Positions 10,901 through 59,760 of a DNA stretch of 64,000 nucleotides are shown here, in pieces. The DNA comes from Desulfurivibrionaceae bacterium (lineage in GTDB: Bacteria > Desulfobacterota > Desulfobulbia > Desulfobulbales > VMSU01). Numbering within the stretch: position 1 is the first letter of the stretch; each line of letters starts with the position of its first letter. Position numbers and translations under genes: made by a program. The notes under the pieces were generated by a model, which searched no databases, had not been told where the DNA came from, and worked only from the letters and a program-made list of their open reading frames with translations. Where the stretch lies: the NCBI GenBank assembly GCA_030145275.1, contig JAQYVV010000006.1, positions 8,000 to 71,999 of the forward strand, in the 5' to 3' direction.

Positions 10901-11331
10901 GAGTACGTCAGCACACTAATATCATTGCCAGACTCATAGGCGTAGGCATCTATCTGCCCAGAGAACAGTATGAGTTCAGCGCCTTCAGTGCGAATCCGGG
11001 CCTTCTGGTATTGATAGTGCGGATCATGGCAGTCTATACACTGCTTGCTCCAAGTGCCATACTTGGCGCTGGTATTCTCGCTGGTGTGACCGAGAACTAT
11101 GGGCGCACTGGTGTTACTATATGGGCTGGTGGCAGCATTGTGACAATTTACCGTGCAGAAGTTATTGATATTACTGCCGGTAAGTAGAGGTGAATCAGCC
11201 AGCGAAGTATCATGACAACTGGAGCAGGAGATATTATGACCTGCGTCATGGGGCGCATCAAGCCCGGCAAAAACCGGGGCCATTAAAAAAAGAGAGACCC
11301 ACGTGAAGCAAATAACTTTTAAGAGAAGCAT
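3394..11331 (-). CDS. Giant secreted multihaem cytochrome c fused to seven Ig-like modules and two parallel beta-helix regions (2645 aa)
   Basis: Signal peptide MLLLKVICFTWVSLFLMAPVFA. The first ~720 aa hold 11 CXXCH motifs plus CTVNCH and CFSSNGCH. There are seven ~120-aa modules. Two Gly/Ser/Thr/Asn-rich regions are full of GGG(I/L/V)Y and GGA(I/V) turns, as in PMP-type right-handed beta-helices. These regions end in IDMGAYE and YDMGADEY. Confidence 0.9.
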   Translation of the reverse strand: MLLLKVICFTWVSLFLMAPVFAGLDAPHDAGHNISCSSCHDTSLADSPLLTGSNINNFCTVNCHNAATSPYSNTSAPIVLGHTSENTSAKYGTWSKQCIDCHDPHYQYQKARIRTEGAELILFSGQIDAYAYESGNDISVLTYSGGAFKSGWDIDSITEKTTAARRPILLPNLRKTGNAFAVTAIDATTMTVAGDVRSMYTYISPPTNFGVIYGQYIKRLVDWNNTPDDGTDDATVKFSDRQGDNSFADGDAIYDGICEVCHTMTDHFRNDGSGPDQNHTNAGAVTSIDCISCHAHTQGFAHGIDSQGPGCEPCHGHDPGYGGATGGAGSFWSHSTHTENDSDDLKGPNVGCDTCHDTANFPDFADGASSLLLTTVCDTCHSQGGTYDGVSDAVVGAKNNWDTAIYESDSVTLQAGKDKWCATCHDEAPSVASAISAPNVIGDEDGDYTYGVGTGWGYYKTGHGLDSADTYPASGGVVQGAGKGCDDCHDYSAAHIDGVARSFDCTDADPANDIDQNDRDCDSDEYRLGYRLNLVDDLNPMVVPLTGVTPNQDEHRLCFSSNGCHLPDKYLTKSTEYGTTFRDDLDWNPTGPDPAPVNAHEYHLGMQYRFRSDWRSTTGKNTITCINCHNVHGSTQLSMIRDGKLTGKEPGMKIFYTDMVVGSPSVSYVTTRDVVEPSQPIYLPDSTGTFWDSNTSDNLCSDCHGNATGGGYIYPRSSNPIAQEAPTLAWTGEAGYTTDGVSPDSAQSGNYFAFRVEYTDANRDRPTVIQVWVDVDDSGSYAENEKFTMFDVDDSDHDSSDGKLYTRIMALNSVGDGTLSYRFHAMDRNGTATGSPVTGATITLNPDVPVLAWSGEAGYSADGVSPNSGASGSSFVFQIDYSHADNLLPSNIQVWVDVDDSGSYEPGEKYEMTEVDSGDTTLTDSKLYSKTLALAYAGDGSLNYRFYALRDALEATGTPTTDRSVNVTSSNTAPLLTWTGVSNYVTDGVDPDSGLDNSSFSFQVQYSDADNTTPTAIQLWVDRNDDDDYDDSDEKIDLTVVDASDTDYSDGKMYVATTTLLIAGDGVINYRFFASDGSVDAGGIAANDNIVTLFVNTIKVSCDGTGDYDYTSLQTAINNAANGDTLLLADGTCTEKITIDNKDLTIISENGAASSIIDGNASGSTVTIKNGADTVLNGVTVQNGNQINFGKGGGLYISDSSPAIINSIITNNIGNSGGGGIYVIGASSTVTISATTISSNTAGSHGAGIYLDSGSSADISGSTISNNHSGNRGGGIFMATSADASLAVSSSTISGNSGTNFAYGGGIYCNATGGTVIVSIDDSTISGNSAQNGGGVYLESAGATLLTGSISDSTFSSNTSSTSAGGAIRLVALDSMTISGSTFNDNDGRTGGGGVAVVNGAGNTFTLIDSSIRDNSSAFFAKGGGLLLSGGTATIERSFFTGNSSQYGGGAYVDGNTTASFVNSVVSGNKGDYNGGGFHFSGEDVVLAADILNCTISGNTSNSGSAVEVAFDATATVTLTNSIIWGNGSSSQINGTVTASYSDIGEDGYSGNNNINIDPYFVDPLDFSYAPTSEGDYHLPNHSAAVDAGTATGAPASDIENNIRPNGAGIDMGAYEVGTVFNNIPSLEWTGETNYAADGVDPDQGVSGASFEFRTTYVDADNDAPVAIQLWVDENDNGSYEAGEKYTMSAVDGGDITYTDGKLYSKSLNLVYAGDDVLNYRFYAADTYDLATGEPVTDNTVVLSSVPQLAWLGSGDYVTDGAHPDSGFISSDFVFQVSYTDAHNTPPTSIQVWLDRNDDGDYLDSGETLTMTEISSADTDCTDGKIYTRTVNFFKAGDNTLNYRFYAANGVAAIGDPVTTTTSSVTIANHVPTLDWTGLLNYVSDGVDPNNDEDGSLFDFRIKYTDADNEAPASIQLWLDKNDDSDYLDVGEKVDLSAVDGGDSDYTDGKLYKVAINLNSAGDNNLNYSFRAGDGTDAATGDPTSDSTVGIFAASPPPDLDWTGESGYTIDGVEEESGPCGGLYTFRVQYTQLLNTAPVTIQLWVDKNDDGDYLDGGEKIDLTVVDGGDSDYTDGKLYTISTLVPYVADGGVAYLFYANDGTADANGNAIVEQTLTVVDAVEVPSEAATIQAGINAAADGQCVLVSNGTYSERIVFPTTKSVTVQSVYGAATTTIQGDGTNGQVVDISSGAHSAVLDGFTIDNQGSVITNSNTRGILVDSLSAPLIKNCIIQGNQPTGSGGGIYLLNASTTTATTLLNINVIGNTAQYGAGIRCDNSKLAITSSSVSSNTTTRDGGGIYLSGASSTVTITDSNIDNNTVSNTAYSGGGIFLDDNTAATISGGSSINGNTAGSGGAVYADAGSTLTISDTSIDSNGGTYGGAIRLRGTVVAALTNVSVSSNTSTQHGGAVYSADAGTSLVITNSTINDNIAATVKNGGALYIQNGSAEVNSSLIQGNKAGAYGGAIRNLGGTVTLTNCIVSGNIIEANDGGGIYCGAGTLNVYNTTISGNYSANRGGGLYGIGTIINSVIWGNTAGGTGPNISGTPTVTYSDVEGGYAGTGNIDANPEFVDFQQAGSGSPTTAGDFRICNGADNPAGCTNVSPCIDSASATSAPADDIEGDARPYDVGGLGDDVDDYDMGADEYVP
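4990..6458 (-). repeat. Four tandem ~120-aa modules (in-gene repeat set 2)
   Basis: The modules start LEWTGETNYAADG, LAWLGSGDYVTDG, LDWTGLLNYVSDG and LDWTGESGYTIDG, with the same internal signature as set 1. Coordinates are approximate. Confidence 0.8.
6480..8050 (-). other. Parallel beta-helix region 1 of the giant protein
   Basis: ~20-residue periodic turns of the form ..S.I..N.A...GGGIY.. It ends with the NIRPNGAGIDMGAYEVG motif. Coordinates are approximate. Confidence 0.7.
8060..9153 (-). repeat. Three tandem ~120-aa modules (in-gene repeat set 1)
   Basis: The modules start LAWTGEAGYTTDG, LAWSGEAGYSADG and LTWTGVSNYVTDG. Each contains Y(T/S)DADN..P..IQ(V/L)WVD..D(D/S)G.Y and ends in L.YRF.A. 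Coordinates are approximate. Confidence 0.8.
9154..11331 (-). other. Haem-rich N-terminal region of the giant protein
   Basis: All CXXCH motifs of the protein fall here: CSSCH, CIDCH, CEVCH, CISCH, CEPCH, CDTCH x2, CATCH, CDDCH, CINCH, CSDCH. Confidence 0.85.
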
Positions 11332-11818
11332 ATAACCTATTTCCTGTTCCTTTGAGAAAAACTCATATTATTCCAACCGATTACCAGCAGGTGCAATACG
11401 GTCAAATTTCTAGATGATAACGATGCAACAGCCTTTACGTATGCTCGATGAACTCGCTTGCTTCATTCAGAGAGCCTAATTTCATAAGCGAATCATCGGT
11501 GTGGTGGATAAGACGCATGAGCATAACTACCATCAATAATGACGTAGCGATAGTTGACAGAGGCCAGATCCGTGCTATTTATGGGAGATCTACGGCGCCT
11601 CGGCAAATTATACTGCTGCCTCTGCCCAAGGCCTGCACTCGGCGACCCAGACAATCCATGCGTAGCATGGATAAGCGGGCCGAGCTTATGGCAATCTTAC
11701 ACTAGGGAACTCCAGGAAACACACGGAGCACTCTGAATCAATCATATTGATGATACCACTAAAATTTCGAATTTCTCACAACTTTTTAAGAAAACAACTA
11801 ATAGCTTACATGGTTTTT

Positions 11819-14188
11819 TCATGGAATAGTGACTTTCAGTGTGTAACAGGTATCACAATCATCTTGGTCCGCCCAACTGTCCCAATAAAGCTCGTGAATA
11901 CTGTAATCAGGGGCATATATTTTCAACCAAATCTCATAAGTCCCGGCACTGTAGGTGTGTTGAACTGATCCGGTAGGCGACGTGAACGAGTCTGATCCTG
12001 AGGGCCAATAGACATAAACCTTACCATACGGATCGCCATTGACCGACACCGTGACAGTGCTGCCGCTAATCGATACATCTGGATACCAGGCAGGCGGCGG
12101 TGGTGGTGGCGCACTTGGCGTGAACGAAATCGTAGTCTTTTCGCCGGTCAAACCATTGGCGCCAGTCACACTGACCACGGCCTGATAGGTTCCTGCCGCA
12201 CCGTATTCATAGGATACGGAGGAAGAGGTCCCAAAATCCTGCTCCGTATAGACGACAGAGCCGGAAGCTGCGAGACCATCATAAAATTCCCAGGTATAGG
12301 TGTACGGCGACACACAGGCACTTGCGGGGAAACAGGATGGGGAGCCGGTGATTATGGAAATGCCGTAATCGCCTTGATCTGTTAAGTCATAGCTGAAACC
12401 TGCAGGAGTTAATGAGGCGCCCCCCCAGTTGAAGGATGCGCCAAAACCATATACACCGTGGCAGGAAATATTGGAGCACCTGCCAGCGCCGCCATTGAAG
12501 GTGTAGTCGAGGGTTGAGTCATAGGGTATGCTGTTCTTCAAAAAGGTAGGAGAAGCCACAACATCATACACACCGTTGATGTGTTTGGTCGCATCGGTAA
12601 TAGTAACACCGTCTGTGGTCGTGGCATAATGGCATATCTCACAGTCAAACCCAATGCTCTCATGTCTTTCGTGCGTATTCGATTTGCTGCCGCCAACAAA
12701 ATTACCATATGCCGGCGGGTAGCCATGACAGTTGTTACAGTTGTTCCCATCCCCCTGCGGATCAGGTGAAGAACCGTCCCACTTGGGAGAGGTGTTTATT
12801 CCCACTTCAGGGGAAACAAATCCTGTTGAAATTGAGGTGCCGTCACTGTGACAATAGGTGTTGGCACAGACAATCCCGCCACCTGTAGTAACTGTCGTAT
12901 TGTTGACCCCCTGGTATGTATAACCGTTGGCAAGGGTCTGGCCGTCATAGGATGTATCCGTCCCGTCGCTCATGCCGCTGACCGCTACCCCGGAAAAACC
13001 GATCTGGATAGCAGCATCGCCCTCCTGGTTACTGGCAGTCATGGTGGTTGACATGCCCCCGTAATGACAGATGTGGCAAGGATATCCCATGCCGCTCGGG
13101 GTGGCATGCAAGGTGTGCTGGCCGCTGCTGGCCGAAGCAGTTGCATCCGGGGGAGGATAGCGAGCCTCCTCCGGTACATTGCCTGACCCCACCAGACCAC
13201 TGGGGCCATTAGGGCTATCCTGGCTGGGAGGCAAGCCGTGACAGTCTGTACAACTGGGCCGAAAGCCATCGGCATGATTATGACAGAACAAGCACTGCTC
13301 CTCACTCTCCAGGTTGACGTTAGCCTCGTCAAGCAGGGCAATATTGGCATGGTTTGGGTCTGGAGCGGCTGCGGCGCCGGCATTACGGAAGTGATCGGTT
13401 TGGGTATGACAAATTTCACAGACATTACTGCCGTCCCCGGCGGTAAAGCCATAGGTGCCGTTCTTATCCATGAACTTCAGGGCTTTTTCGTAGCTGCCGT
13501 CGCCATCAGTATCAACGAACTTCCTGATGTACTGACCATAGATGACGCCAAAGTTAGTGGGCGGGCTAATGTAGGTGTACATGGCCCTGACATCGCCGGC
13601 CACGGTCATGGTAGTAGCGTCGATAGCTGTAACTGCAAAGGCGTTGCCAGTTTTCTTCAGATTGGGCAGGAGGATGGGCCGCCTGGCCGCTGTGGTCTTT
13701 TCGGTTATGGAATCTATGTTCCAGCCGCTCTTAAAAGTCCCGCCGGAATACGTCAGCGCACTGGTGTTGTCATCGGCGTCATAAACATAAGCATCAACCT
13801 GACCGCTGAAGAGGAACAGTTCAACACTCTCGGTGCTGGCCCAATATTTCTGATTTTGATAGTGCGGATCATGGCAGTCCAGGCACTGTTTGGTCCAAGG
13901 GCCAAACTGGGTGCTGGTATAGGCGCTAGTATGCCCGAGGACCATGGGAGCACTGGTGTTGCTGTAAGATTCAACATTGGCGGCATTATGACAATTTACC
14001 GTACAGAAATTGTTGATATTGCTGCCGATAAGCAAAGGGGAATCCGACAGCGAAGTATCATGACAACTGGAACAAGAGATTTTATGGCCTGCGTCGTGGG
14101 GCGCATCAAGGCCGGCAAAGACCAGATCCGCAGAGAAAAGAGATACACAGATGACACAAAAAATTTTTAGAAAAAGAGCATAGCCCAT
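11819..14188 (-). CDS. Secreted multihaem cytochrome c with C-terminal PKD/Ig-like domains (789 aa); N-terminal paralogue of the giant protein
   Basis: It has a signal peptide and 8 CXXCH motifs, plus CTVNCH, CANTYCH and CSNISCH. The CX4CH...CXXCH pattern resembles the Geobacter-type domain. The first ~270 aa are ~80% identical to the giant protein. A PKD-like region is present (YTYTWEFYDG...YQAVVSVTGANGLTGEKTTISF). Confidence 0.9.
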   Translation of the reverse strand: MGYALFLKIFCVICVSLFSADLVFAGLDAPHDAGHKISCSSCHDTSLSDSPLLIGSNINNFCTVNCHNAANVESYSNTSAPMVLGHTSAYTSTQFGPWTKQCLDCHDPHYQNQKYWASTESVELFLFSGQVDAYVYDADDNTSALTYSGGTFKSGWNIDSITEKTTAARRPILLPNLKKTGNAFAVTAIDATTMTVAGDVRAMYTYISPPTNFGVIYGQYIRKFVDTDGDGSYEKALKFMDKNGTYGFTAGDGSNVCEICHTQTDHFRNAGAAAAPDPNHANIALLDEANVNLESEEQCLFCHNHADGFRPSCTDCHGLPPSQDSPNGPSGLVGSGNVPEEARYPPPDATASASSGQHTLHATPSGMGYPCHICHYGGMSTTMTASNQEGDAAIQIGFSGVAVSGMSDGTDTSYDGQTLANGYTYQGVNNTTVTTGGGIVCANTYCHSDGTSISTGFVSPEVGINTSPKWDGSSPDPQGDGNNCNNCHGYPPAYGNFVGGSKSNTHERHESIGFDCEICHYATTTDGVTITDATKHINGVYDVVASPTFLKNSIPYDSTLDYTFNGGAGRCSNISCHGVYGFGASFNWGGASLTPAGFSYDLTDQGDYGISIITGSPSCFPASACVSPYTYTWEFYDGLAASGSVVYTEQDFGTSSSVSYEYGAAGTYQAVVSVTGANGLTGEKTTISFTPSAPPPPPPAWYPDVSISGSTVTVSVNGDPYGKVYVYWPSGSDSFTSPTGSVQHTYSAGTYEIWLKIYAPDYSIHELYWDSWADQDDCDTCYTLKVTIP

Positions 14189-14372
14189 ATTCAGTCCCCT
14201 TGATAAAAACTCGCTATCATTATAACCGGATCCCGGCAGGTTAACTCAAATCAACGATCCATATTATCATTGTACAAATGGCCCCACGATACCCAAACAG
14301 AGAAGAAAGAAGCTTCCTTAAGTTTGAGCTTCTAAGAGTTCCCAAATGGGGTACTGCGGGAACTTTACTGGT

Positions 14373-16952
14373 CTACTTAACCTTGCGCAGCTTTGCCGGT
14401 CCAGAAAGATCGACAATTACCCCATTAGCAACCCCATCGGCATCGCCCAAACCACCGTCGGTGAGTTCCAGAACAGCTGACAAGCGATCACGACTGATCT
14501 GAGTCAAACCGCTATAATCAAGCCACCCATTAAACGGATCATAATGGACCCAGCTGCTGCCAGATGGAATAGCCCGCCCCTCCTCGGCAAAATAGAAAGA
14601 CACGGATACGGAGGCGCCAGGAGAAGCAACCTCAATTTTGTTAGCCAGCAAGCCAAGTGAGAACTTAATAGATTTACCAGGGGGCTCCAGTAAATTTTCC
14701 GGGGCAACGGCCTTGACCGCCAGTAAACTTGCCACCTCGGATACCACACTTAAGCAAGCTCTATTCCCCCCTTCTGCCGTATCAACACAGAAGAGTTCAT
14801 CCTGCTCGCGATCGGCAATGCCGTCAGCATTTACATCATCAATGCCCATTTCTCCATCTACCGGCTCCTCAAGCCCCTGGAGACCGGTTTGAAAAGTAAA
14901 GACATCAGACCATTCCGACTGACTACCCAGGGTAGACCAGAACTTTGCCCGCCAGTAGTAGGTGGTTTCAGGGTCAAGAAGTAGTTCCGCTAACGGTAGT
15001 TCGGTCAAATTCTCGCCAGAACCATTCACCGCCAGGAGGAGATGGCTAAATTCAGGATCAGGGCTAACCTGCCAACTCGTGAACCAGTGCTCAGCGCAGC
15101 CTGCCGGATCAACATAGACTCCCGCACTCAACTGTGCTGTTACAGAGATATCCTCGGAATAATTTTCAGGAGAGAGCGGCAGTGGCCAATCCGGCCAAGA
15201 GAGACACTCAAAGCTATCTCCCAGGCCAATGATGGCTGGCATACTCCAGCTACTGATATTTCCGGCCTGATCAATGGAACTTACCCTCCAGTACCAAATA
15301 CCGTCAGCAAACAAATTGCCTAAGTCATACCAGCCGTCGGTGATGATCGTACTCGTCGTAAGGCCATTAAAATCTGGATTATCTGCCACTTCCACCCTAA
15401 AGGCAACGGCGTCCGCCGCTGTCCAACTTATGATGCTTGTACCGGGCAGAAACCCAAAATCGACAACGGGAGTGAGGGGCGGTTTGGTATCGAGAATGAC
15501 CTCGGCTGCGATTTCGATAGTGTTACCACCAGCATCCTGCAAGTTCCCCAGAACCGTCTTCACTCCATCACCAGTAGTAAGCAGCCAGGCCAAATCAGCA
15601 CCAAAAGGCTTCCATTCGCCAAATGGTTCTCCAGCATTGGCAAAACGCATGATCTCGGCTTCAGGAGAGATGATGGAGAGCAGCACATCTGCGCCACTGG
15701 TGTAGGTAGCGCCATTATTAATTTGCAGAGAGCCACTGAGCTGATTCTTCACTGCCACCGTGCAGAAGTCCGGTTCTGATAGCAGCCCCAGGGCATTGGT
15801 TACCGTCAGTTGAAAAACAAGCTCCTCACCAAGAGGCGCCACTTCCGGAGCCTCGAAAATCGGCCTAACAGAATCAGGATCATCCAAATTCACTAATGGG
15901 CCACCCACCTGGGTCCAGGTAAAAGAGAGCAGCTCACCTTCCGGATCACTGGAACTGCTGCCATCCAAGCTTACCATGGCATGCTCGGTAACCAGAAGGT
16001 CCTCGCCGGCATGGGCCTCTGGAGGCTTATTGTCCCAGTTCATCTCCCCGGAAGCATCGGCAAGTCCTAACACCCTCACCCCACGCCAGAAGGGAGAACC
16101 GATCAAAAGCCGCAAATCTGCAGTTACTGCAAGAGCCTGGGCAGGAAGTTCTGCTCCGTTTTCCTCGCGAATCGAGCCAAGATACTCTCCACTGCTGCTA
16201 TAGCAGAACACCCCACCTCGGGCAGGATCACTGATATAGACATTGCCCCCGGGGGCGACGCTGATACCACGAGGCCGGATTAACTGCCCTTCGCCCAGGC
16301 CGTAACTAGCGAAACTCCTAAGAAACACCCCTGAAAGTGTACACACCGAAACTCTCACCCCGTGAATCATACCGCCGTCATTCCCCACAATGGGAGGCTG
16401 TTCAAGGATATAGAGTTCATCACCGGCAATAGCAATGGATTCAGGGAGGTTCGGACTATCATCAATGGTAAAAAGCAGGCTGCCGCCTGGTTCATAAACC
16501 TTTATAGCGTGAGCCAACTGATCAACAACGTAGATATTGCCGCTCTGACTATCAACAGCGAGACTCACCGGACGTTTGAACTCACCGGCTCCGCTGCCTA
16601 AATAACCAAGCTCAACTCCAGACGCAGCATCAATAATAGTTACGGAGAGATCCTTAGCTGAACTGACGAAAAGACGGTCTCTGTCACTGGCAACTGCTAA
16701 AGGAGAGGAGACAGGGAACATATTGCGCAAAACACCCTGCAGAGAGTAGCTCGCCACCAGATCACGGTCCGAGTCAACCGCATAGATCACTCCCCTGGCA
16801 ACGGAGAGGTGTTCAACGGTGGAGAGTTTGGAAGTAATGGAGGGAAGCGGTACATATTCAATGTAGGCCATGGCCATAATGGGAAAAGAAAGTAGAACAA
16901 TAAATAACACAAGCGCTAAATAACCTTTTATTTTGACCATAACCATCCCCAT
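14373..16952 (-). CDS. Secreted NHL-repeat beta-propeller protein with PKD-like and two Fn3/Ig-like modules (859 aa)
   Basis: Signal/TM segment LALVLFIVLLSFPIMAMA. NHL-like blades repeat (...IYVVDQLAHAIKVY, GNVYISDPARGGVFCY). A PKD-like segment reads SLDGSSSSDPEGELLSFTWTQVGGP. Two modules carry the ...YYWR(V/A)...S.WS signature. There is a DDVNADGIAD Ca-loop-like motif and a C-terminal DGGLGDADGVANGVIVDLSGP motif. Confidence 0.85.
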   Translation of the reverse strand: MGMVMVKIKGYLALVLFIVLLSFPIMAMAYIEYVPLPSITSKLSTVEHLSVARGVIYAVDSDRDLVASYSLQGVLRNMFPVSSPLAVASDRDRLFVSSAKDLSVTIIDAASGVELGYLGSGAGEFKRPVSLAVDSQSGNIYVVDQLAHAIKVYEPGGSLLFTIDDSPNLPESIAIAGDELYILEQPPIVGNDGGMIHGVRVSVCTLSGVFLRSFASYGLGEGQLIRPRGISVAPGGNVYISDPARGGVFCYSSSGEYLGSIREENGAELPAQALAVTADLRLLIGSPFWRGVRVLGLADASGEMNWDNKPPEAHAGEDLLVTEHAMVSLDGSSSSDPEGELLSFTWTQVGGPLVNLDDPDSVRPIFEAPEVAPLGEELVFQLTVTNALGLLSEPDFCTVAVKNQLSGSLQINNGATYTSGADVLLSIISPEAEIMRFANAGEPFGEWKPFGADLAWLLTTGDGVKTVLGNLQDAGGNTIEIAAEVILDTKPPLTPVVDFGFLPGTSIISWTAADAVAFRVEVADNPDFNGLTTSTIITDGWYDLGNLFADGIWYWRVSSIDQAGNISSWSMPAIIGLGDSFECLSWPDWPLPLSPENYSEDISVTAQLSAGVYVDPAGCAEHWFTSWQVSPDPEFSHLLLAVNGSGENLTELPLAELLLDPETTYYWRAKFWSTLGSQSEWSDVFTFQTGLQGLEEPVDGEMGIDDVNADGIADREQDELFCVDTAEGGNRACLSVVSEVASLLAVKAVAPENLLEPPGKSIKFSLGLLANKIEVASPGASVSVSFYFAEEGRAIPSGSSWVHYDPFNGWLDYSGLTQISRDRLSAVLELTDGGLGDADGVANGVIVDLSGPAKLRKVK

Positions 16953-16958
16953 CCTCCG

Positions 16959-18110
16959 TTAAACACCATCTTTGTTACTATGACAGACAAAACAGCCGTT
17001 GCCAGCACCAGCCCCTGTGGTCCCAGCTGAAATTAAGGTGTAATCCCAACGCAGCATATCAGAAAAGGGGCTGCCATGGGCTCGATGACAGGAGAGACAG
17101 AGTACCGTATCCGTCCCCGGAGTTACAGTCCCAGAAGCTGTGCTTCCGGTAATGCTCACCCGGCCCACCGGAACATCTAGGTCATAGCTGGTATAGGCGG
17201 CATACTCACCACTGTTGGGTAAGAGAATATCGGTGGGGTGCCTAATCCATGGTGAAGAAGGCCCGCCAATATCAGCACTGGCATGAAAAAGACCGTGACA
17301 TTCAGCACAGAGCTGGCTGATGCTCTCGATATCCGCCCAGTCCTGGGTACTACGATCAGCATAGACTATGCCCTTATACTCGTTATGATCTGTTGGACCG
17401 GTGGTCGCCTGCCAGTCCGCATCCTCAGCCCCATGTACCTTATTGAGAAAACGGTAACTGGTAGCCACCGTGGCCCCCTGAGACGCCTCATCCAATGAAC
17501 CGAACTTCAAAACCGAATCGTCACCGTGATGAGTAGCGTGCATGGCCTGGGTCTGGCTGATCTTCTCCCGATCGCCATGACAACCATTAGTACCGGCGCA
17601 CATAACCTGCGGAGCCGTCCCAGAGTAAGCGGGCTGGTACTTTGCAGTAGAGGGATCATAGTCGGCAACATAGCCTGGCGGTGTGTTCTGCAGGTCACTG
17701 TCCTGAGCGACAATGTCATTACCAAATCCGTGGATATTATGACCGTAGCTATCATCAACAAAAACGTGATGGTAGTTCCCTGCGGCCAAATCCGTGCCAA
17801 CATGGGCAATCTGCGGGGCATCGGCTATAATATTATCACCGCCATCCACGGCCTGCGCATGGCAGCCTAGACAGTCAAGACGCAGCATAGAGGAACGGGC
17901 TGAGCTATGACAATCGTTACACTCAGCGGCCCCAGCAACATTAGGGGTGGAATCAATTTTCATGGAAGCACCGTTCTGGCTGTCATGCATGGTGTGGCAG
18001 CTGGAACACTGGCCACTCTGGATTTTAGTCCATCCAATCGCAGGGAGAAAGAAGGATAAAAAGAGGCAAAGCAAAAGGGTGAAGAGAGGCTGCCAGCAGG
18101 CAAACCGCAT
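16959..18110 (-). CDS. Secreted multihaem cytochrome c (6 CXXCH)
   Basis: Motifs CSSCH, CNDCH, CLGCH, CAECH, CLSCH and CFVCH, plus CAGTNGCH. The start was moved to MRFACWQPLFTLLLCLFLSFFLPAIG so that the protein begins with its signal peptide. The ORF itself is open up to 18284. Confidence 0.85.
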   Translation of the reverse strand: MRFACWQPLFTLLLCLFLSFFLPAIGWTKIQSGQCSSCHTMHDSQNGASMKIDSTPNVAGAAECNDCHSSARSSMLRLDCLGCHAQAVDGGDNIIADAPQIAHVGTDLAAGNYHHVFVDDSYGHNIHGFGNDIVAQDSDLQNTPPGYVADYDPSTAKYQPAYSGTAPQVMCAGTNGCHGDREKISQTQAMHATHHGDDSVLKFGSLDEASQGATVATSYRFLNKVHGAEDADWQATTGPTDHNEYKGIVYADRSTQDWADIESISQLCAECHGLFHASADIGGPSSPWIRHPTDILLPNSGEYAAYTSYDLDVPVGRVSITGSTASGTVTPGTDTVLCLSCHRAHGSPFSDMLRWDYTLISAGTTGAGAGNGCFVCHSNKDGV

Positions 18111-18412
18111 GGTCTGCCGACACGCAGCCTTTTGGGATAAACACTCCACAACTAAACGGTCAGGCCTGCCCATCCAGTTGTGATCTCTCAGGTATAACGG
18201 ATACTCTCCCACAATAAACTCCCCTTGTTTATAAATATATCCCCAAAAAGAGTTTTTCCCTCTTTCAGCAGCCACAAAACACATATCACCTAACCTCGGG
18301 AACTCTGTAACTTTGCACCAAGCAACGACAAACTAAACAATCAGCCCAACAAACATTTCACGCTTTACTTAATAACTGTTTAACTTAATCCTTAAAGACT
18401 ACTACAATGTGA

Positions 18413-22110: not shown

Positions 22111-23418
22111 CTATTCTACTGTACAATCGCCCCCTTCACAGCTAAGATCACCAACAAGAAAGCGGGACTTGAATCCGGCCTTTTTCAAAACAGTGTGGGC
22201 CATTTCCGCCCGAGCTCCGGTTGTGCAATGGACAAGCATTTCCTTGTCTTTCGGCAGCTCTGCCATACGTGCTTCAAGATTGTCTAAGGGTATGGTGATA
22301 ACATTTGAGAAAGTACCTCCTACTGTTTCCTCTGCCCCCCTGACATCAAGAACAACTTGGGTGGCACTTCCCTCTTCGGCGACTACCAGAAATTCTTCCG
22401 AACTAACTTCACCTTTGCCAAGTTTTCTGACCCATTCAATCTCAGTAGCAGGTTCGCCGGAGACTAATTTCCCGCCCCTTGCCTGGTATCCCTGCAAACC
22501 TCCATCAATAAGGGAAACACCCTTTATTCCCGCTTGCGCCAACTCCTTGCGCGCACCTTTGGCGTTGTCACCATAGATGACAACAGGAGCCTTCGAATCA
22601 AAATCATCCAGATAATCCTCCAACTCATCATACGGGATATTCACGGTTCTGGCTATATGGCCTGCCGCTGACTCTTTTTCAGAGCGGAGATCCACCAAAA
22701 TAATATTACCCTTCTGGATAAACGCGTCACTGGCAACTACTGACTGTCCTGCCTTTTTCCAACCTGGAACACCTTGGAGATATATTTTAACATTTGTGTA
22801 ACCTAATTTCTTCGCCAGACCGGCGGATTTTGAGCTCATGCCTCAGGTAGGGCCTCCACAATGAAAAACCAAGAGGGTATCTTTATCAGCCGGGAGTAAT
22901 TCTGCTCCTTTTGCAACCATTGCCCCCACTGGGATAGAAACCGACGAAGGAACATGGCCTGCAGCAAATCGACCAGCAGGCCTTGAATCTACCAGAAAGA
23001 AACCTCCCTTCTCAGGCCCGAGAGCAACTAGGCCAATCATCTCTTCAGACTGTATTTCGGTTACACCGGCAGGCAGCTTGGCAAGTTTTGGCTTCACAAC
23101 AGTGGCAAATTTATCAGCGCCTCGTACTTCAAAGTGAACGATGGCAGCTTCACCTTTCTTAGCATGGTCCATGCCTTTGGTGTCATCATCGAATTTAACC
23201 ATCACCAGGTCTTTACCAACGACCATAGAAATACTTTTGGCCTTGTTCGATACACCCGCCACTTTGCCTTTATAGACGTTTGCGTCCTTTTTCTCAACTG
23301 CAGAAGTTGGAGCAGCAGCGCTTTGCGTGCCACTGCCTGTATTACCGACACACCCCCCTGCCAGGAATCCCGCAAAGACGAGAAACGCAACAAGTCTTAA
23401 TACTTTAATTTTCTTCAT
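22111..23418 (-). CDS. Lipoprotein with three rhodanese domains; the in-frame UGA at 22843-22845 is read as selenocysteine (candidate selenoprotein)
   Basis: ORFs 22843-23418 and 22111-22839 are in the same frame and are separated only by TGA-GGC. The junction ...LLVFHCGGPT-U-GMSSKSAGLAKKLGYTNV... is the active-site loop and helix of a single rhodanese fold. The lipobox is FLAGGC. The third domain has a normal HCTTGARA active site. Confidence 0.6.
22800..22842 (-). promoter_or_regulatory. Candidate bacterial SECIS hairpin
   Basis: The mRNA reads UGA GGC AUG AGC UCA AAA UCC GCC GGU CUG GCG. The stem CGCC/GGCG closes a GGUCU loop that starts 21 nt after the UGA. This resembles the GCA-GGUC-UGC apex of E. 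coli fdhF, which starts 18 nt after its UGA. Confidence 0.45.
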
Positions 23419-23440: not shown

Positions 23441-23827
23441 TTAATTATACCAACTAAGTACTTTATGAATACCAGCTATAAGCTCTGCTGCTTCTACCGG
23501 TTTACTTATCATCAAAGCACATCTATCACGAAATTCTTGATTTATGATTTCCTCGTCTCCATATCTGACCAAAGCAACAATTGGTATACCCTCCCCTATT
23601 TGTAGTAGTGTTTCTGCCATATTTTCGCAGCAACCATCAGGAGAATTTGTATCTACAAGCAACATGCTGACCGGATTATGATCCTTGGCGGATTCAGATA
23701 TTTTCGCCATGACCAAGGAACAGTCGTCAACTGTACTTATGGAAAAATTTTCGCTTTTCAGGGTCAAAGACAATATTCGCTGCAGTCCTATTTCACGCTC
23801 AGCTACAAGTATATGTTTTCGATTCAT
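23441..23827 (-). CDS. Single-domain response regulator (REC only)
   Basis: ILVAEREIGLQ...SMLLVDTNSPDG...ISKP. The acceptor Asp and the Lys are conserved. Confidence 0.8.
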   Translation of the reverse strand: MNRKHILVAEREIGLQRILSLTLKSENFSISTVDDCSLVMAKISESAKDHNPVSMLLVDTNSPDGCCENMAETLLQIGEGIPIVALVRYGDEEIINQEFRDRCALMISKPVEAAELIAGIHKVLSWYN

Positions 23828-23909: not shown

Positions 23910-23925
23910 AGCAAACTGCATGCCA
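23910..23925 (-). promoter_or_regulatory. Sigma-54 (-24/-12) promoter for the REC-rhodanese operon
   Basis: The minus strand reads TGGCAT-GCAGT-TTGCT, near-perfect against TGGCAC-N5-TTGCW. The GC of the -12 box is ~85 nt upstream of the ATG at 23827. Confidence 0.6.
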
Positions 23926-24479: not shown

Positions 24480-26435
24480 ATGAAATTACGAACCATCATA
24501 TTCTGGACCATCTTTTCCATAGGGATTACCCCCCTCCTCACCTTGGTGGCGATTAATCTTAAAGGGCATATGGAAAGGCATGAAGAGGTCGAACATCAAA
24601 GGCTCTTGGCTCAGTCAAAGCTTATCCAGGGAACATTATTAAACAGCATCAAATATCTTGACGCAGACCCGATTGACTTTATTCCTGAGTATGCAGATTA
24701 TATCTGGATTGACCGAAAAGGCACATATAGACATCTCCCCTCCGCCTTTCTTTTCCCAGAGCTACAAATACAGACCAACAAAAAGAAAAAAACAGCTACC
24801 CATGCTTTTCGTGACTTTCCTGGACTGCAAAATGAGATGCCAACTAATAAGCCCTTTTTATTGAACGTCAGGGGGAGGACCTTTTCGTGGCTCCCTCTTT
24901 CTGATAGCCATAGCAAGAAGACTATTTTCTGGGTTGGCAAAGAAATTGACACCTCTGCATCTCAGAAGTGGCGGCAATCACTGATTGAAAATATTTTTGT
25001 TATTGTTGTGTCAACAATGCTGCTCGTTTTTTTTATTGCTAAATTTATATCCTCAAAGGTTGACCGGTGGCAAAAAGAGCTGATTCAAGGACTAATTACC
25101 GTGCTCAACAAGGAAGAAAAAGTGACCTTTGTCTGGAATGACACCCAGGAAATGAAAGACTTGGGAAACGACCTCACCTCTCTTTGCAGTCAATACATAG
25201 AAAGCAGAAAGACCAGTCGCACCTCGGAAATGGAACTAAAAGAAAGTGAAAACAGATTCAGAAAACTGACGGCTTCGGCTCAAGATGCCATCATTATGAT
25301 GGACAACAATGGTAACACCGCTTTCTGGAACAAAGCGGCTGAAACAACATTCGGCTACAGCAGTGAACAGGCAATTGGCCAGCCGATCCACTCGCTTCTG
25401 GACCTTCGGAGGCACAATTCACCCGACGCGCACAACAGTTTCCCGCAAGATGAAAGCAAAAAAAAACAGGCCCCAGTTAGACATGAAACCCTTGAACTGA
25501 CAGCCCGTAAACAGGATGGGAACGACATAAGTATTGAACTCTCGTTATCTGCTGCCCAAATAAATGAGCAGTGGCATGCCATCTGGATAGCTCGCGACAT
25601 CTCAGAAAGGAAAAAAGCTGAAAAAGAGGCAAAACTGCGGCAACAGCAACTTCTCCAAGCAGACAAAATGCACTCATTGGGTCTCCTGGTCTCCGGCATG
25701 GCCCATGAAATTAACAACCCGAACAGCATTACGATTCTTAACTCCTCCATGCTAGCCAACGCCTGGAAAAGTATAACACCAGTCCTTGAAGATTATTACC
25801 AAGAAAATGGCGACTTTATCGTGGCAGGTCTTGAGTATAGTGAGATGAGGGAACAGATCCCCATGCTGCTTGATGAACTTGAAGATAGTGGAAAAAGGGT
25901 CAAAAACATTGTCAAGGACCTGAAAGACTACGCCCGCCAGGAGTCTTCTATGATATCGAAAGATATTGACCTGAACAAGGTGGTAGACAAAGCTATCCGA
26001 CTCACAAACAATCAGATAAAAAAAGCCACATCTAACTTTCACTTTCATCCGGCATCTCACCTCCCCCTGCTCAAGGGGAACCAGCAAAGATTTGAACAGG
26101 TTGTCATTAACCTTATCCAAAATGCCTGTGAAGCACTACAGGAAAGCAGCGCCCAAATAAAGATCAGCACCTCCTACAACCTCACAGACAGAACCACACA
26201 GCTATGTGTCGAAGACCAAGGACACGGGATTGCCAAGGAGGATCTGCAACATGTTATCGACCCTTTCTTTACCACAAAAAGAGATTTTGGCGGAACCGGT
26301 CTCGGTCTTTCAGTTTCAGCAGGCATCATAAAAAGATACAAAGGAAGCATTGATTTTACCTCCGAAGCCGGCAAAGGGACCAAGGTCACCGTATCCTTCC
26401 CCTCAGCTGAACAAACAACGCTAAAACCTCAGTAA
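24480..26435 (+). CDS. Membrane sensor histidine kinase with PAS domain (NtrB-like partner)
   Basis: It has two TM segments and a PAS domain (FRKLTASAQDAIIMMDNNGNTAFWN). The H-box is GMAHEINNPN and HATPase_c is marked by GTGLGLSV. Confidence 0.85.
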   Translation: MKLRTIIFWTIFSIGITPLLTLVAINLKGHMERHEEVEHQRLLAQSKLIQGTLLNSIKYLDADPIDFIPEYADYIWIDRKGTYRHLPSAFLFPELQIQTNKKKKTATHAFRDFPGLQNEMPTNKPFLLNVRGRTFSWLPLSDSHSKKTIFWVGKEIDTSASQKWRQSLIENIFVIVVSTMLLVFFIAKFISSKVDRWQKELIQGLITVLNKEEKVTFVWNDTQEMKDLGNDLTSLCSQYIESRKTSRTSEMELKESENRFRKLTASAQDAIIMMDNNGNTAFWNKAAETTFGYSSEQAIGQPIHSLLDLRRHNSPDAHNSFPQDESKKKQAPVRHETLELTARKQDGNDISIELSLSAAQINEQWHAIWIARDISERKKAEKEAKLRQQQLLQADKMHSLGLLVSGMAHEINNPNSITILNSSMLANAWKSITPVLEDYYQENGDFIVAGLEYSEMREQIPMLLDELEDSGKRVKNIVKDLKDYARQESSMISKDIDLNKVVDKAIRLTNNQIKKATSNFHFHPASHLPLLKGNQQRFEQVVINLIQNACEALQESSAQIKISTSYNLTDRTTQLCVEDQGHGIAKEDLQHVIDPFFTTKRDFGGTGLGLSVSAGIIKRYKGSIDFTSEAGKGTKVTVSFPSAEQTTLKPQ

Positions 26436-26454: not shown

Positions 26455-27879
26455 ATGACCCCCACAAAAACTTTGTCCCCATATCTCCCGGTTCTTCTGG
26501 TCGATGACGAGAAACCATGGCTGAACAGCCTTAGCCTGAAACTGCGTGCCACAGGTATCAACAACGTCACCTGCTGCTCCGACAGCAGGCAGGTCTTGAA
26601 TCTTCTGGCAAAACAGCAATTCACCGCAATGGTCCTCGATCTCATCATGCCCCATGTGCAAGGCGACACTCTCCTGCCGGAGATTACCCGCCTCTACCCT
26701 GACATGCCGGTGATTATTATCACAGGCCTTGACCAGGTTGACACAGCTGTAAACTGCATACAGCAAGGTGCTTTTGATTATCAGGTCAAAGGGAATGAAA
26801 ACCAAAAGCTTATTGAGGTCATAAAGCGGGCCATTGAACTCAGCCAGCTGCGCAGAGAAAATGAGCTTTTAAAGGATCGTTTTCTCTCTGATAAAATCGA
26901 TAACCCCTCAGTTTTTAAAGCGATTGTCACCGGCAATAAATCTATGCGCTCCCTGTTCCAGTACATGGAGGCCATTGCCCACACAAATGAACCAGTCCTT
27001 ATCACCGGTGAAACTGGGGCCGGCAAAGAACTTTTTGCCCAAGCATTACACGATCTTTCCCAGAGATCAGGAAAATTTGTCCCGGTCAATATAGCTGGTT
27101 TTGATAAAGACATGTTATCAGACAGTCTTTTCGGGCATAAAAAAGGTGCCTTTACCGGTGCAGAAACATCCAGGGACGGCCTGTTGCTTAAGTCCTCGGG
27201 AGGCACCATTTTCCTGGATGAGATAGGAGACCTTGACCAGACATCCCAAGTCAAACTGCTGCGGCTTATCCAGGAAAAAGAGTATTTTCCACTTGGCTCA
27301 GACATAGCAAAGAAAACGGATGCCCGGATGATTTTTGCAACCTTGCGCGACATACAAACACTGCAAAACGCAGAGACATTCCGCCCTGACCTCTTCTACC
27401 GCTTACGGGCCCATCATATTCACATACCGCCGTTGCGTGAGCGCCTGGATGACTTGCCTATACTCCTCGATTACTTCCTTAAAATCGCAGCTGCCCAACA
27501 AGGAAAGAAAGTGCCTAGCTATCCTAAAGAACTGCTCCTTGTCCTGGAGAATTATGCATATCCAGGCAATGTCAGAGAGCTAAAAAACATGATCTTTGAC
27601 GCAGTGAGTAAACATAGCAGCAAAACACTTTCAATGGATGCATTCAGATCTTACCTTAAGGATATCCCTGTCATTCGAGAAACAAGCCCTAAGCTAAGCG
27701 AGGATGATGCAATATTTTCCCATCTGGCCACACTTCCTTCTTTAAAAAATTCAACCCAGCTTCTTGTCCAAGAGGCCCTTCAGCGCGCCAAAGGCAACCA
27801 ATCGATCGCAGCGGAAATGCTTGGCATTACAAGGCAGGCTCTGAACTGGCGTATCAAAAAAGAAGAAAAGAAAATATAG
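26455..27879 (+). CDS. Sigma-54-dependent response regulator (NtrC family)
   Basis: REC domain (VLLVDDE..MVLDLIMP), AAA+ domain with GETGAGKELFAQALH and GAFTGA, and a C-terminal Fis-type HTH (AAEMLGITRQALNWRIKK). Confidence 0.9.
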   Translation: MTPTKTLSPYLPVLLVDDEKPWLNSLSLKLRATGINNVTCCSDSRQVLNLLAKQQFTAMVLDLIMPHVQGDTLLPEITRLYPDMPVIIITGLDQVDTAVNCIQQGAFDYQVKGNENQKLIEVIKRAIELSQLRRENELLKDRFLSDKIDNPSVFKAIVTGNKSMRSLFQYMEAIAHTNEPVLITGETGAGKELFAQALHDLSQRSGKFVPVNIAGFDKDMLSDSLFGHKKGAFTGAETSRDGLLLKSSGGTIFLDEIGDLDQTSQVKLLRLIQEKEYFPLGSDIAKKTDARMIFATLRDIQTLQNAETFRPDLFYRLRAHHIHIPPLRERLDDLPILLDYFLKIAAAQQGKKVPSYPKELLLVLENYAYPGNVRELKNMIFDAVSKHSSKTLSMDAFRSYLKDIPVIRETSPKLSEDDAIFSHLATLPSLKNSTQLLVQEALQRAKGNQSIAAEMLGITRQALNWRIKKEEKKI

Positions 27880-27880: not shown

Positions 27881-29377
27881 ATGGATTTTAAGCAAGCCCA
27901 AGACATATGGCATGATTGGCAGAATAAGAAAATGCCCACGGGTGAACTTCACCTTGCCTCTGACATCGCAGCCTCTTTTATTTCGTCATTTCAGCAGAGA
28001 GAGCCAGAAGATTTGCGTCTTATTGACCTCCTCTGCGAAATGGCCATGGCCAAGCAGGCAAAGATCGCCAAACATGCCTCAGCCACCCTCTTCAGTGAAA
28101 TAATTGAAATTCTCTGCGATGATTTCTCCAAAGAGGGGGTTGCAACCTGCGCCCATGTCCTTCTCCGGATACTTGACTCGATTCGAAAGCAACCGGAAGG
28201 AAGGGAACTTGATTCCCTCCTGAGAAAAAAAGGACTTAATACAACAGCGCAGCTTCTGGAGCGTTTTGAGGCAATACGAGAAAAAACTCGTATTCCAGAG
28301 GGGCAGCTAAGAAAGACCCAAAAAATCATTATACTTTCAAGAGTAACCGCAGGGGCTGATATTTCCATAACCGGCATTATCATCCAAAGGCTCCGAAAGA
28401 GTTTTCCCCAAGCAGAATTTATCCTAATCGGCCCTGAACATCTTCCACATATGTTCGGTCAGGCTAAAAGATGCCGTTCTATCCCCTTTATTTACAAAAA
28501 TAACGGCAGCCTCCTTGAAAAAATGACCACCTGGCCGGCTCTTTTGGCCATCGTCACTAAGGAAAGTCACGATTTTTACCCAGGTGAGGTGCTCCTATTT
28601 GACCCCGACACACGACTTTCCCAACTAGGCCTTTTACCGCTGCTAGATGACGAGCACACGTGGTACTTCCCCTCTAGAACGATAGGCCTTACAGATGGCC
28701 GCCAGAAAAGCCTCTCCGAACTGAGCAACCAATGGCTGAACGAGATACTTGGAGAGAACAAACCGCCTCTAGCATATCCGTTACTCTCTGTTCTCGAAGA
28801 GCAGTACTCTGCAATTCGCAACAGCTTAAAAAATGAGCACACCTTCATCATTACAATCAATTTTGGAGTCGGCAACGATCCAAGAAAAAAAATCGGGGCT
28901 CATTTTGAATTGACTCTCTTGCATGAGCTCCTCAAAACACCTCAAACAGTAATTATTCTGGACAACGGCTGCGGGGATGAAGAACACAAAAGGACAGAGC
29001 ATCATCTGCAGGTATTAAAACAGTTTGGCTTCAATACTCAGACAATCACAAAGGGAGAAAATATCGAGAAAATATCGTTGCATCATGGTATTATCTCGCA
29101 CCAAGGTCCCTTATGTGACTTAGGAAAATGGATCAAGATATCAGACTGTTTTATCGGCTATGACTCCTGCGGTCAGCATATTGCCAACGCCGCAGGGACA
29201 CCATCGGTAATTACCTTTGCCGGGGCCCCCTCAGCACGATTTGTGGCACGCTGGTCTCCGAACAACAAGACAGGCTCTACCTTCCCCATCTACAGACATA
29301 GTAAACTTGGCAAAAGAGAACTTGACACCCTGCTCAAAAATGTAGTAGAGGCGGTGGCTAAGGTTAGAAAAAACTGA
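27881..29377 (+). CDS. Glycosyltransferase family 9 (heptosyltransferase)-like protein with an unassigned N-terminal region
   Basis: The C-terminal CFIGYDSCGQHIANAAGTPSVITFAG resembles the GT9 motif (..GNDSGPMHLAAALG.P.V.LFG). It starts 1 nt after the regulator's stop codon. Confidence 0.55.
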   Translation: MDFKQAQDIWHDWQNKKMPTGELHLASDIAASFISSFQQREPEDLRLIDLLCEMAMAKQAKIAKHASATLFSEIIEILCDDFSKEGVATCAHVLLRILDSIRKQPEGRELDSLLRKKGLNTTAQLLERFEAIREKTRIPEGQLRKTQKIIILSRVTAGADISITGIIIQRLRKSFPQAEFILIGPEHLPHMFGQAKRCRSIPFIYKNNGSLLEKMTTWPALLAIVTKESHDFYPGEVLLFDPDTRLSQLGLLPLLDDEHTWYFPSRTIGLTDGRQKSLSELSNQWLNEILGENKPPLAYPLLSVLEEQYSAIRNSLKNEHTFIITINFGVGNDPRKKIGAHFELTLLHELLKTPQTVIILDNGCGDEEHKRTEHHLQVLKQFGFNTQTITKGENIEKISLHHGIISHQGPLCDLGKWIKISDCFIGYDSCGQHIANAAGTPSVITFAGAPSARFVARWSPNNKTGSTFPIYRHSKLGKRELDTLLKNVVEAVAKVRKN

Positions 29378-42523: not shown

Positions 42524-42757
42524 CTCCATGAACACCATAAAAATTTACCATGAGTGGCGAACCTATCAGAACCACAAGATTTCTGCCTATAATTATTACC
42601 TTTTTTCTTGCGCTCATACTTGAGGTGTGGTATCAAAATTCGTATTCAGGATCATATAAATTATCATCCGGGATATTGTCCTTTGGCAGAGTCTAACGTT
42701 GAAAAGTTCATAAGGTTTAAAAAAAATAAATTGAAAAAAATCACATCTAGGAGACAA

Positions 42758-43699: not shown

Positions 43700-43727
43700 T
43701 TCAGTTAAGCAGAGACTTGTGCAACAT

Positions 43728-43768
43728 AAGCGACTCATAGATTTATTTTCATGAATCATGAGTCGCTT
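43728..43768 (+). other. Intercistronic hairpin (11-bp perfect stem, 19-nt loop)
   Basis: AAGCGACTCAT...ATGAGTCGCTT between the two cytochrome genes. It is followed by TAATATTA and not by a clean U-tract. Confidence 0.4.
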
Positions 43769-43866
43769 TAATATTATAGAAAACACCTTGTTCTTCTCCA
43801 GTGCAAAAAACAGTTCATAAACGTACTGAAGAGGGAAAAAAGAACCTGAGAATAGGAGATTAAAAA

Positions 43867-51314: not shown

Positions 51315-51373
51315 CTCCCTTTCTAACTGTTCAGGTTGGGTTGCAAACTACCCTCAACTCAGTAGTGTACGGT

Positions 51374-52615: not shown

Positions 52616-52631
52616 TAAAGCTTCCTTTTGT

Positions 52632-52780
52632 GTAACTGTTCAGCTGCACCCCATCCGGAGTCTGCGCTACCTGCGCGCGCCCAACGGAAGTACCCTTGGG
52701 GTGCGAACAGGCCTTCCAGCATACCGATGTATAGCTGAAAGGCCTGTTCACACACACCTGGGGCACATCTGAACAGTTAC
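52632..52780. repeat. Palindromic intergenic repeat, type B, between ftsQ and ftsA
   Basis: GTAACTGTTCAGCTGCACCCC...GGGGCACATCTGAACAGTTAC with an internal GAACAGGCCTT...AAGGCCTGTTC hairpin. Confidence 0.9.
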
Positions 52781-52793
52781 CCTTTTGTCGTAC

Positions 52794-54576: not shown

Positions 54577-54578
54577 GG

Positions 54579-55949: not shown

Positions 55950-55982
55950 GTTTGCTCAGGATATTAATTTATCAAAGTTTGC

Positions 55983-57131: not shown

Positions 57132-57165
57132 AATAGTCTCATTTAGGAATAAGCGCTGGCGGTTC

Positions 57166-58614: not shown

Positions 58615-58627
58615 AACTGACCAAGCA

Positions 58628-59707: not shown

Positions 59708-59760
59708 TGATTAAGTTTGTCCTGTTCCGGTTAAACTTCGTTTATTTACGTTCAATAATG

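Follow-up and report, generated by a model that had tools for sequence, protein, structure and literature searches.

This work concerns a rhodanese gene with an in-frame UGA codon in a 64,000-nt stretch of DNA from a Desulfurivibrionaceae bacterium (contig JAQYVV010000006.1, positions 8,000 to 71,999; assembly GCA_030145275.1). The whole stretch is in the following called the window, and coordinates refer to it unless another locus is named. On its minus strand, positions 23418..22111 form a single frame of 435 codons that is interrupted solely by a TGA at 22845..22843. The upstream open reading frame (ORF; 23418..22843) encodes 191 amino acids and ends with ...DTLLVFHCGGPT-TGA. The downstream ORF (22839..22111) continues in the same frame, encodes 242 amino acids and begins with MSSKSAGLAKKLGY..., and nothing lies between the two except this TGA and a GGC codon (22842..22840). 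Both fragments have been deposited individually as NCBI gene calls. If the UGA, which is codon 192, is read through, the product has 435 residues and five cysteines (C23, C187, C398, C427 and C432). According to Pfam and to alignments with PDB structures, the break lies in the active-site loop of the first of three rhodanese domains. TGA terminates 11 of the 41 long ORFs in the window and is therefore an ordinary stop codon there, not a reassigned one.

An earlier interpretation made from the letters alone, the sequence-only reading, had joined the two ORFs into one gene for a triple-rhodanese lipoprotein with selenocysteine (Sec) at the UGA. The shared frame bears out the joining of the ORFs, as do Cys-type orthologs of ~440 amino acids, which align end to end with the read-through product. 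As judged by sequence comparison, the locus is one gene, its UGA column alternates between Cys and Sec among orthologs, and a Sec-specific hairpin follows at the distance of a selenocysteine insertion sequence (SECIS).

The UGA column in orthologs

We scanned for orthologs using one genome per species, which yielded 80 loci, almost all of them in metagenome-assembled genomes (MAGs) of Desulfobulbales. The sequence-only reading had proposed an alignment of homologs to see whether Cys or Sec occupies the UGA column; in these loci it holds TGA in 61 cases and a Cys codon (TGC or TGT) in 18, with one case unresolved and not a single TAA or TAG. A wider set of 187 full-length relatives, extending to Desulfuromonadales and Comamonadaceae, has Cys at this column in 186 proteins. 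The only other residue is an Arg in one protein (P0158; CGGPTRG), which is thus back to an ordinary CX4R loop.

The protein search gave a consistent picture. It returned many full-length relatives of ~440 amino acids from Desulfobulbaceae and allies, which are 37–58% identical to the read-through product and share the motif F-Y-C-G-G-x-T-C-G-[ML]-S, together with many proteins of 242–249 amino acids whose first residue is exactly the Met after the break. Four contigs encoding such short proteins all show an upstream ORF followed by TGA, GGN and ATG. Across more than 80 orthologs the sequence is conserved on both sides of the UGA. The TGA form was also found in a Desulfuromonadales-type contig (L087) and in the isolates Hydrosulfovibrio ferrireducens CB1MN (L054) and Desulfocapsa sulfexigens. 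The sequence-only reading had called a triple-rhodanese Sec lipoprotein unusual, which was overstated: the family is widespread, and its Desulfobulbales orthologs are mostly of the Sec type.

A neighbor-joining tree with Fitch parsimony placed Sec at the root of the sampled clade and required at least eight Sec-to-Cys replacements, a picture that is valid only for the 80 loci nearest to the window protein, as remoter relatives are mostly of the Cys type.

A conserved hairpin downstream of the UGA

The mRNA can form the hairpin CGCC-GGUCU-GGCG shortly downstream of the UGA, with the stem starting 17 nt and the loop 21 nt after this codon. Numbered from the T of TGA, positions +20 to +32 have the sequence C GCC GGT CTG GCG and are 92–100% conserved in 60 distinct TGA-type sequences, except for one loop base at 83%. 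The third codon positions within this segment are nearly fixed in the Sec forms (+20 C, 100%; +23 C, 97%; +26 T, 100%; +32 G, 100%), whereas the commonest base in the Cys forms reaches only 47%, 53%, 53% and 35%, respectively. Third positions flanking the hairpin in the Sec forms are conserved to about 40–60%. Consistently, the RNAalifold consensus hairpin has −6.43 kcal/mol in the Sec set, compared with −0.48 kcal/mol in the Cys set.

Compensatory exchanges support the stem. The innermost pair is changed from C-G to A-U in L021 and L037, the fourth pair from C-G to U-A in the Desulfuromonadales-type contig L087, and the two outer pairs are variable with several compensatory types. The loop occurs as GGUCU, GGUCA, GGUUC and, once, AGUUU. 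Hence, the features expected of a SECIS element were found, namely a stem-loop specific to the Sec forms, shortly 3′ of the UGA and with G and U in its apical loop. Some Cys-type genes have retained the hairpin as well, completely in L009 (L009:4553-4600) and partially in L076, L041 and L012; by their sequences, these look like fossils of a recent Sec-to-Cys replacement.

The sequence-only reading had placed the hairpin 21 nt after the UGA and likened it to the SECIS of Escherichia coli fdhF. The distance is right for the loop but not for the stem, and the likeness holds for the GGUC(U) loop, whereas the spacing exceeds that of fdhF by one codon and the stem is conserved over a much shorter length. 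Both elements share the apical portion GC(A/C)-GGUC-U-G(G)C, and two orthologs even have GCAGGUCUUGC here. In the MG1655 record, fdhF has UGA-N18-GGUC within GCA-GGUC-UGC, compared with UGA-N21-GGUC(U) within GCC-GGUCU-GGC in the window gene. The conserved stem of the latter comprises just 4–6 bp and has neither the bulged U nor the long lower helix of fdhF.

A further codon constraint was observed upstream of the UGA. Across loci L001-L084, the Gly four codons 5′ of it is encoded by GGA or GGG in 60 of the 62 Sec forms, compared with 30% gene-wide, and by GGC in 14 of 17 Cys forms. The sequence GGC GGC at this place would create GGCGG, which is fully complementary to the 5′ arm CCGCC of the hairpin. 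When we introduced this substitution in silico, the median predicted hairpin probability dropped from 0.93 to 0.64, and in the window sequence the minimum-energy fold shifted to a competing helix. Because GGC GGC would pair with the 5′ arm, avoidance of a helix that disrupts the SECIS is sufficient to explain the preference for GGR. A Shine-Dalgarno-like pausing role of the resulting upstream GGAGG or GGGGG is possible.

Domain architecture and position of the predicted Sec in the active-site loop

Pfam detects the rhodanese family (PF00581) in three stretches of the read-through product (E = 4e-35), and alignments to PDB structures place the domains at residues ~137–227, 232–319 and 350–424. 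A catalytic Cys follows the central strand in domain 1 (Cys187) and domain 3 (Cys398) but not in domain 2. The alignment thereby confirmed the domain order given in the sequence-only reading, active, inactive (YGDN) and active (HCTTGAR). A structure search returned tandem rhodaneses only, namely 6mxv, 1yt8, EanB and the periplasmic YnjE. The best matches in both structure and sequence, the periplasmic or cytoplasmic multi-domain rhodaneses Pseudomonas aeruginosa 1yt8, E. coli YnjE (2wlr/3ipo) and Francisella tularensis 6mxv, are 13–20% identical to the window protein and differ from it in their ordinary CX4R-type loops, which contain a single Cys and neither a further Cys nor a Sec.

To locate the UGA within the loop, we used an alignment and a structural model. 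With phmmer, V-F-H-C-G-G-P-T-U-G was paired with V-N-C-A-G-R-T-R-S in domain 2 of the Pseudomonas thiosulfate sulfurtransferase 1yt8. The AlphaFold2 model of the Cys-type ortholog P0002 (mean predicted local distance difference test (pLDDT) score 87.8, predicted template modeling score (pTM) 0.75) has its central strand up to residue 189, the loop cysteines at 190 and 195 and a helix from residue 197. Because the first Cys directly follows the strand and the second closely precedes the helix, alignment and model agree that Cys187 is the canonical rhodanese catalytic position of domain 1. The predicted Sec192 is then the sixth and last residue of the loop (H-C-G-G-P-T-U-G-M-S), at +5 from Cys187, where CX4R loops have their Arg. 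The loop of domain 3, HC398-TTGA-R, keeps Arg where domain 1 has Sec192.

These results change one part of the sequence-only reading, in which the U headed a C-X4-(R/K)-(S/T) loop (U-G-M-S-S-K-S). Both the 1yt8 alignment and the P0002 model put Cys187 there, and Sec192 does not take the position of the catalytic Cys but aligns with the +5 Arg, the residue that P0158 has in this place. The same evidence upholds two other statements, that the break falls inside a single rhodanese fold and that the loop contains a C-X4-U pair (CGGPTU), formed by Cys187 and Sec192. In rhodanese structures, the side chain at +5 extends into the cradle that surrounds the catalytic sulfur. A bond between Cys and Sec, or an attack of Sec on a persulfide at Cys187, would therefore be sterically plausible.

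The N-terminus carries a signal peptide with a lipobox, recognized by its pattern and ending at C23 as had been proposed; MKKIKVLRLVAFLVFAGFLAGG-C23 fits the PROSITE lipoprotein pattern. Many relatives have signal peptides with AGC or TGC lipoboxes, and others have signal peptides of the AxA type. The product is thus probably exported and lipid-anchored at C23. An all-beta domain follows, for which no Pfam family match was found and which is absent from the Trichlorobacter-type relatives of 386 amino acids.

Table 1 Features of the rhodanese locus and its regulatory neighborhood in the window.
Feature	Coordinates	Strand	Remarks
Single gene, 435-residue predicted selenoprotein	22111..23418	-	Stop TAG at 22111..22113; now called as ORFs of 191 + 242 amino acids
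Signal peptide with lipobox, MKKIKVLRLVAFLVFAGFLAGG-C23	23350..23418	-	Read from the sequence pattern
N-terminal all-beta domain, ~residues 45–115	23074..23286	-	AlphaFold model of P0002: five strands, pLDDT 84–93
Rhodanese domain 1 with Cys187-X4-Sec192 loop	22750..23013	-	Best Pfam stretch 136–223; NCBIfam TsoB model 137–231
Cys187, canonical catalytic Cys of domain 1, head of C-X4-U loop	22858..22860	-	1yt8 alignment; at least 90% conserved
Gly188 codon GGA	22855..22857	-	GGA/GGG preference limited to Sec forms; yields GGAGG 7 nt 5′ of UGA
UGA codon read as Sec, residue 192 (predicted)	22843..22845	-	TGA/TGY column in orthologs
Putative SECIS core hairpin CGCC-GGUCU-GGCG	22813..22825	-	4-bp stem, extendable to 5–6 bp; 5-nt loop
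Rhodanese domain 2, YGDN, no catalytic Cys	22462..22725	-	Sequence and alignments
Rhodanese domain 3, loop H-C398-TTGAR	22147..22371	-	Cys at least 90% conserved
C-terminal pair C427-EGGD-C432	22123..22140	-	In most Desulfobulbales orthologs, absent from Desulfuromonadales ones
Atypical single-domain response regulator	23441..23827	-	Directly upstream; Pfam Response_reg 28 bits, slightly below cut-off
Sigma-54 −24/−12 promoter element TGGCATGCAGTTTGCT	23910..23925	-	83 nt 5′ of the receiver gene
PAS histidine kinase	24480..26435	+	Divergent from the rhodanese gene
Sigma-54 enhancer-binding response regulator	26455..27879	+	Divergent from the rhodanese gene

Genomic context and regulation

The rhodanese gene is probably co-transcribed with the receiver gene upstream of it. 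This receiver begins with ILVAER in place of the usual acidic DD pair and is still a conserved neighbor in at least 27 loci. The PAS kinase and the sigma-54 regulator are both conserved beside the rhodanese gene in 41 of 83 loci. In 40 of 74 loci, compared with about 1.4 estimated by chance, a motif GGCAY-N5-TTGCW precedes either the receiver or the rhodanese gene, and the element found in the window matches the presence of the adjacent enhancer-binding regulator and PAS kinase. Based on this promoter, the receiver gene and the adjacent kinase and sigma-54 activator, expression is probably signal-dependent.

Downstream in the window, the neighbors encode a lytic transglycosylase (SLT_2) and a CxxCxxCC protein, which look unrelated. 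Different neighbors were seen for remote Cys-type relatives that are 38–40% identical to the window protein. In a Desulfuromonadaceae MAG (L085:5683-11399), genes for a DUF3373 protein, a ~106-aa protein and a Cys-type rhodanese lipoprotein are followed by a molybdopterin oxidoreductase gene, and in a Comamonadaceae genome (L089:3397-9272) a multihaem cytochrome and a cytochrome b precede the same set of DUF3373, ~106-aa and Cys-type rhodanese proteins.

We also scanned all TGA-interrupted frames and GGUYN-loop hairpins of the window for a second selenoprotein, and no second candidate was upheld. One candidate, a radical-SAM gene (48321-50057, minus strand) with the tail ...CKRCGVCND-TGA (48321-48323), was rejected because its extension does not resemble a protein and reaches into the following gene; this TGA is a genuine stop codon.

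Elsewhere in the window, a run of large, secreted-looking proteins is encoded on the minus strand at 3394-18284, including one of 2645 amino acids with right-handed beta-helix repeats, a 789-aa Geobacter-type CxxxxCH/CXXCH cytochrome, an 859-aa NHL/PKD protein and a 441-aa doubled-CXXCH cytochrome. On the plus strand at 42608-45024, two neighboring genes for multihaem c-type cytochromes (c7/c3-like, 363 and 385 amino acids) are followed by one for a PAS histidine kinase. The dcw cluster at 50085-63812 (minus strand) contains mraY, murD, murG, murC, murB, ftsQ, ftsA and ftsZ, with no ftsW between murD (57166-58614) and murG (55983-57341). The listed murG ORF overlaps murD by 176 nt, and its listed start is probably too far upstream.

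Alternative explanations

Several observations weigh against Sec at codon 192 and the functions proposed for it. Two codons after the UGA there is an AUG, preceded at a distance of 13 nt by GGAGG, which makes termination and re-initiation possible as a side reaction. Within the 64-kb window we found no selA, selB or selD and no tRNA-Sec or any other tRNA gene, and the rhodanese gene adjoins no sulfur-respiration enzyme there. The hairpin is short, with 4–6 bp; an Rfam scan of the whole window and of 22700-22900 returned neither SECIS nor any other family, and the 81 nt after the UGA, folded alone, did no better than shuffled sequences (z = +0.88). Since single-sequence folding and Rfam give no signal, the evidence for the hairpin is comparative.

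If the UGA were a true stop, the locus would yield polypeptides of 191 and 242 amino acids by termination and re-initiation at the AUG, or it would be a decaying pseudogene. The AUG is indeed invariant, a GGAGG or GGGGG stretch is favored upstream in the TGA forms, the public annotation shows two genes, and the missing Sec machinery in the window would fit as well. However, Met is the commonest residue at this place in the Cys forms too (G-M-S), so that the protein accounts for the AUG, and the GGR preference is explained by the avoided pairing of GGCGG with the 5′ arm of the hairpin. A stop would also cut through the active-site loop of one rhodanese fold, while orthologs with Cys in this column are single chains. 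The codon is TGA in all 61 genomes concerned and never TAA or TAG, and the hairpin that follows is specific to TGA forms and has fixed synonymous sites. Unlike in a pseudogene, both halves are intact and conserved down to 38% identity. We therefore regard a true stop as improbable. There is likewise only a slim chance that the UGA is read through without selenium, by a near-cognate Trp or Cys tRNA or another recoding signal with the hairpin as a generic stimulator. Bacterial UGA codons are leaky, but the strict alternation with Cys codons is the classic signature of Sec, and the GGUC(U) loop and its spacing resemble the SelB-binding element of fdhF. Moreover, genes for Sec-type proteins that contain SECIS-like elements have been reported from Desulfobulbales relatives such as Desulfurivibrio alkaliphilus (PMC13510729). 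To turn a TGC or TGT codon into TGA, an error in sequencing or assembly would need to affect only one base, yet more than 60 genomes and metagenome contigs that were assembled independently share the identical TGA and downstream hairpin, which leaves this explanation with a negligible probability.

Relation to known rhodanese selenoproteins

Selenoproteins of the rhodanese family have been known as predictions since the mid-2000s, and they abound in deltaproteobacterial symbionts (PMC1088965, PMC1976440). The sequence-only reading had rightly referred to such predictions, and a 2026 review catalogues five forms with the motifs UxxS (form 1, Geobacter sulfurreducens), UxxG (forms 2 and 4), CxU (form 3) and UxxxxU (form 5, TsoB) (PMC13188914). 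Form 1 consists of PF00581 alone with one Sec in UxxS and is represented by WP_010941598.1 of G. sulfurreducens (PMC13188914, PMC9312934). The window protein resembles it in that U-G-M-S fits UxxS, the sole published descriptor of this form, and Desulfuromonadales, too, have Sec-type members of its family (L087). For form 1, the catalogues describe neither the architecture nor the placement of Sec relative to the catalytic Cys nor a SECIS. A homology search that started from a Desulfuromonadaceae relative did not return the G. sulfurreducens protein. Compared by motif only, the window protein may thus be a member of form 1; its C-G-G-P-T-U-G-M-S fits both UxxS and CxxxxU.

No selenoprotein model of NCBIfam captures the window protein. 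The best match of such a model to domain 1 is by the TsoB model NF045694 (residues 137–231, 51.5 bits against a cut-off of 805), and the LYCAU model NF041203 matches residues 178–224 with 32.6 bits against a cut-off of 115. TsoB (WP_332113227.1), a selenoprotein in which a rhodanese is fused to a DsbD-like part (PMC13188914), has a related rhodanese domain and, like the window protein, two chalcogen residues at equal spacing (U-x4-U and C-X4-U, respectively). It differs by its two Sec and its DsbD-like membrane part, whereas the window protein has one Sec, three rhodanese domains and no membrane domain. Proteins of NF041203 (form 3) share a rhodanese domain with Sec near Cys in the active-site region, but they have CxU in a single small domain and not CxxxxU.

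Another possible relative is ExtH (GSU2940), a 49-kDa rhodanese-family lipoprotein of the Geobacter extHIJKL cluster, encoded beside ExtKL/MccSep, which is a Sec-dependent polysulfide reductase (PMC6148476, PMC5877670, PMC13510729). Compared by description and not by sequence, ExtH is similar in its size, lipobox and rhodanese domains; in contrast to the window protein, it is not reported as a selenoprotein. The L085 and L089 clusters of Cys-type relatives recall the extH-I-J-K...P layout, although this is suggestive only. Beside the window gene, the ExtH-type neighbors, a porin, a small periplasmic protein and a multihaem cytochrome, are absent; they were found only with distant Cys-type relatives. 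We considered the 498-aa protein at 27881-29377 as a porin of the ExtI type and rejected this, as it does not resemble the DUF3373 protein of L085 and gives only a weak glycosyltransferase-9 hint. An ExtJ fusion as the origin of the N-terminal beta domain was also rejected, since this domain has no similarity to the ~106-aa proteins encoded before the Cys-type relatives.

In the literature searched, we did not find Sec at the +5 loop position, the secreted triple-rhodanese architecture, the strongly conserved minimal SECIS, the dominance of Sec forms in Desulfobulbales or the sigma-54 context. The window protein is a misannotated and previously unannotated case within the already known class of bacterial rhodanese selenoproteins.

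Proposed function and significance

Taken together, we consider it very likely that the locus is one gene for an exported triple-rhodanese protein in which UGA encodes Sec, with a Cys-Sec pair that probably acts on sulfane sulfur and with expression that is probably signal-dependent. The hairpin starting 17 nt after the UGA would be the SECIS core, and the comparative pattern suggests that SelB carrying Sec-tRNA binds it and outcompetes release factor 2. Cys187-X4-Sec192 would then probably form a redox-active selenenylsulfide couple. The idea of a redox pair is backed independently by TsoB, in which a related rhodanese domain with U-x4-U is fused to a DsbD-like electron-transfer module. Such a couple could take, resolve or reduce periplasmic sulfane sulfur in the form of persulfide, polysulfide or thiosulfate, whereas domain 3 (HC398TTGAR) would act as an ordinary persulfide carrier and domain 2 as a catalytically dead spacer. 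The link to sulfur is drawn because Cys-type relatives adjoin a molybdopterin oxidoreductase, or a multihaem cytochrome and a cytochrome b. Transcription would depend on sigma-54 and be controlled by a signal.

A more specific proposal, which we put forward tentatively and think rather unlikely, is that Cys-X4-Sec turns the rhodanese domain from a persulfide carrier into a selenenylsulfide module. The protein would then be a periplasmic or outer-surface reductase or relay for sulfane sulfur (polysulfide or persulfide) in the sulfur disproportionation and respiration of Desulfobulbales, in evolutionary continuity with the ExtH-type lipoproteins from porin-cytochrome clusters of Geobacter and switched on by a dedicated sigma-54 two-component system.

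The main picture remains unchanged, as computational surveys revealed rhodanese-family selenoproteins about twenty years ago. In public annotation, however, the window gene and about 60 orthologs from species-representative genomes are split into two ORFs, and a dedicated model of the NCBIfam type would repair this widespread annotation error in Desulfobulbales and Desulfuromonadales. Taken with the Sec-Sec version found in TsoB, a Sec at +5 next to the catalytic Cys suggests a subtype of rhodaneses that uses a two-chalcogen redox pair and not a lone persulfide. The hosts are sulfur-cycling sediment bacteria, and a selenium-dependent, exported sulfur-handling protein would tie selenium supply to sulfur disproportionation or respiration.

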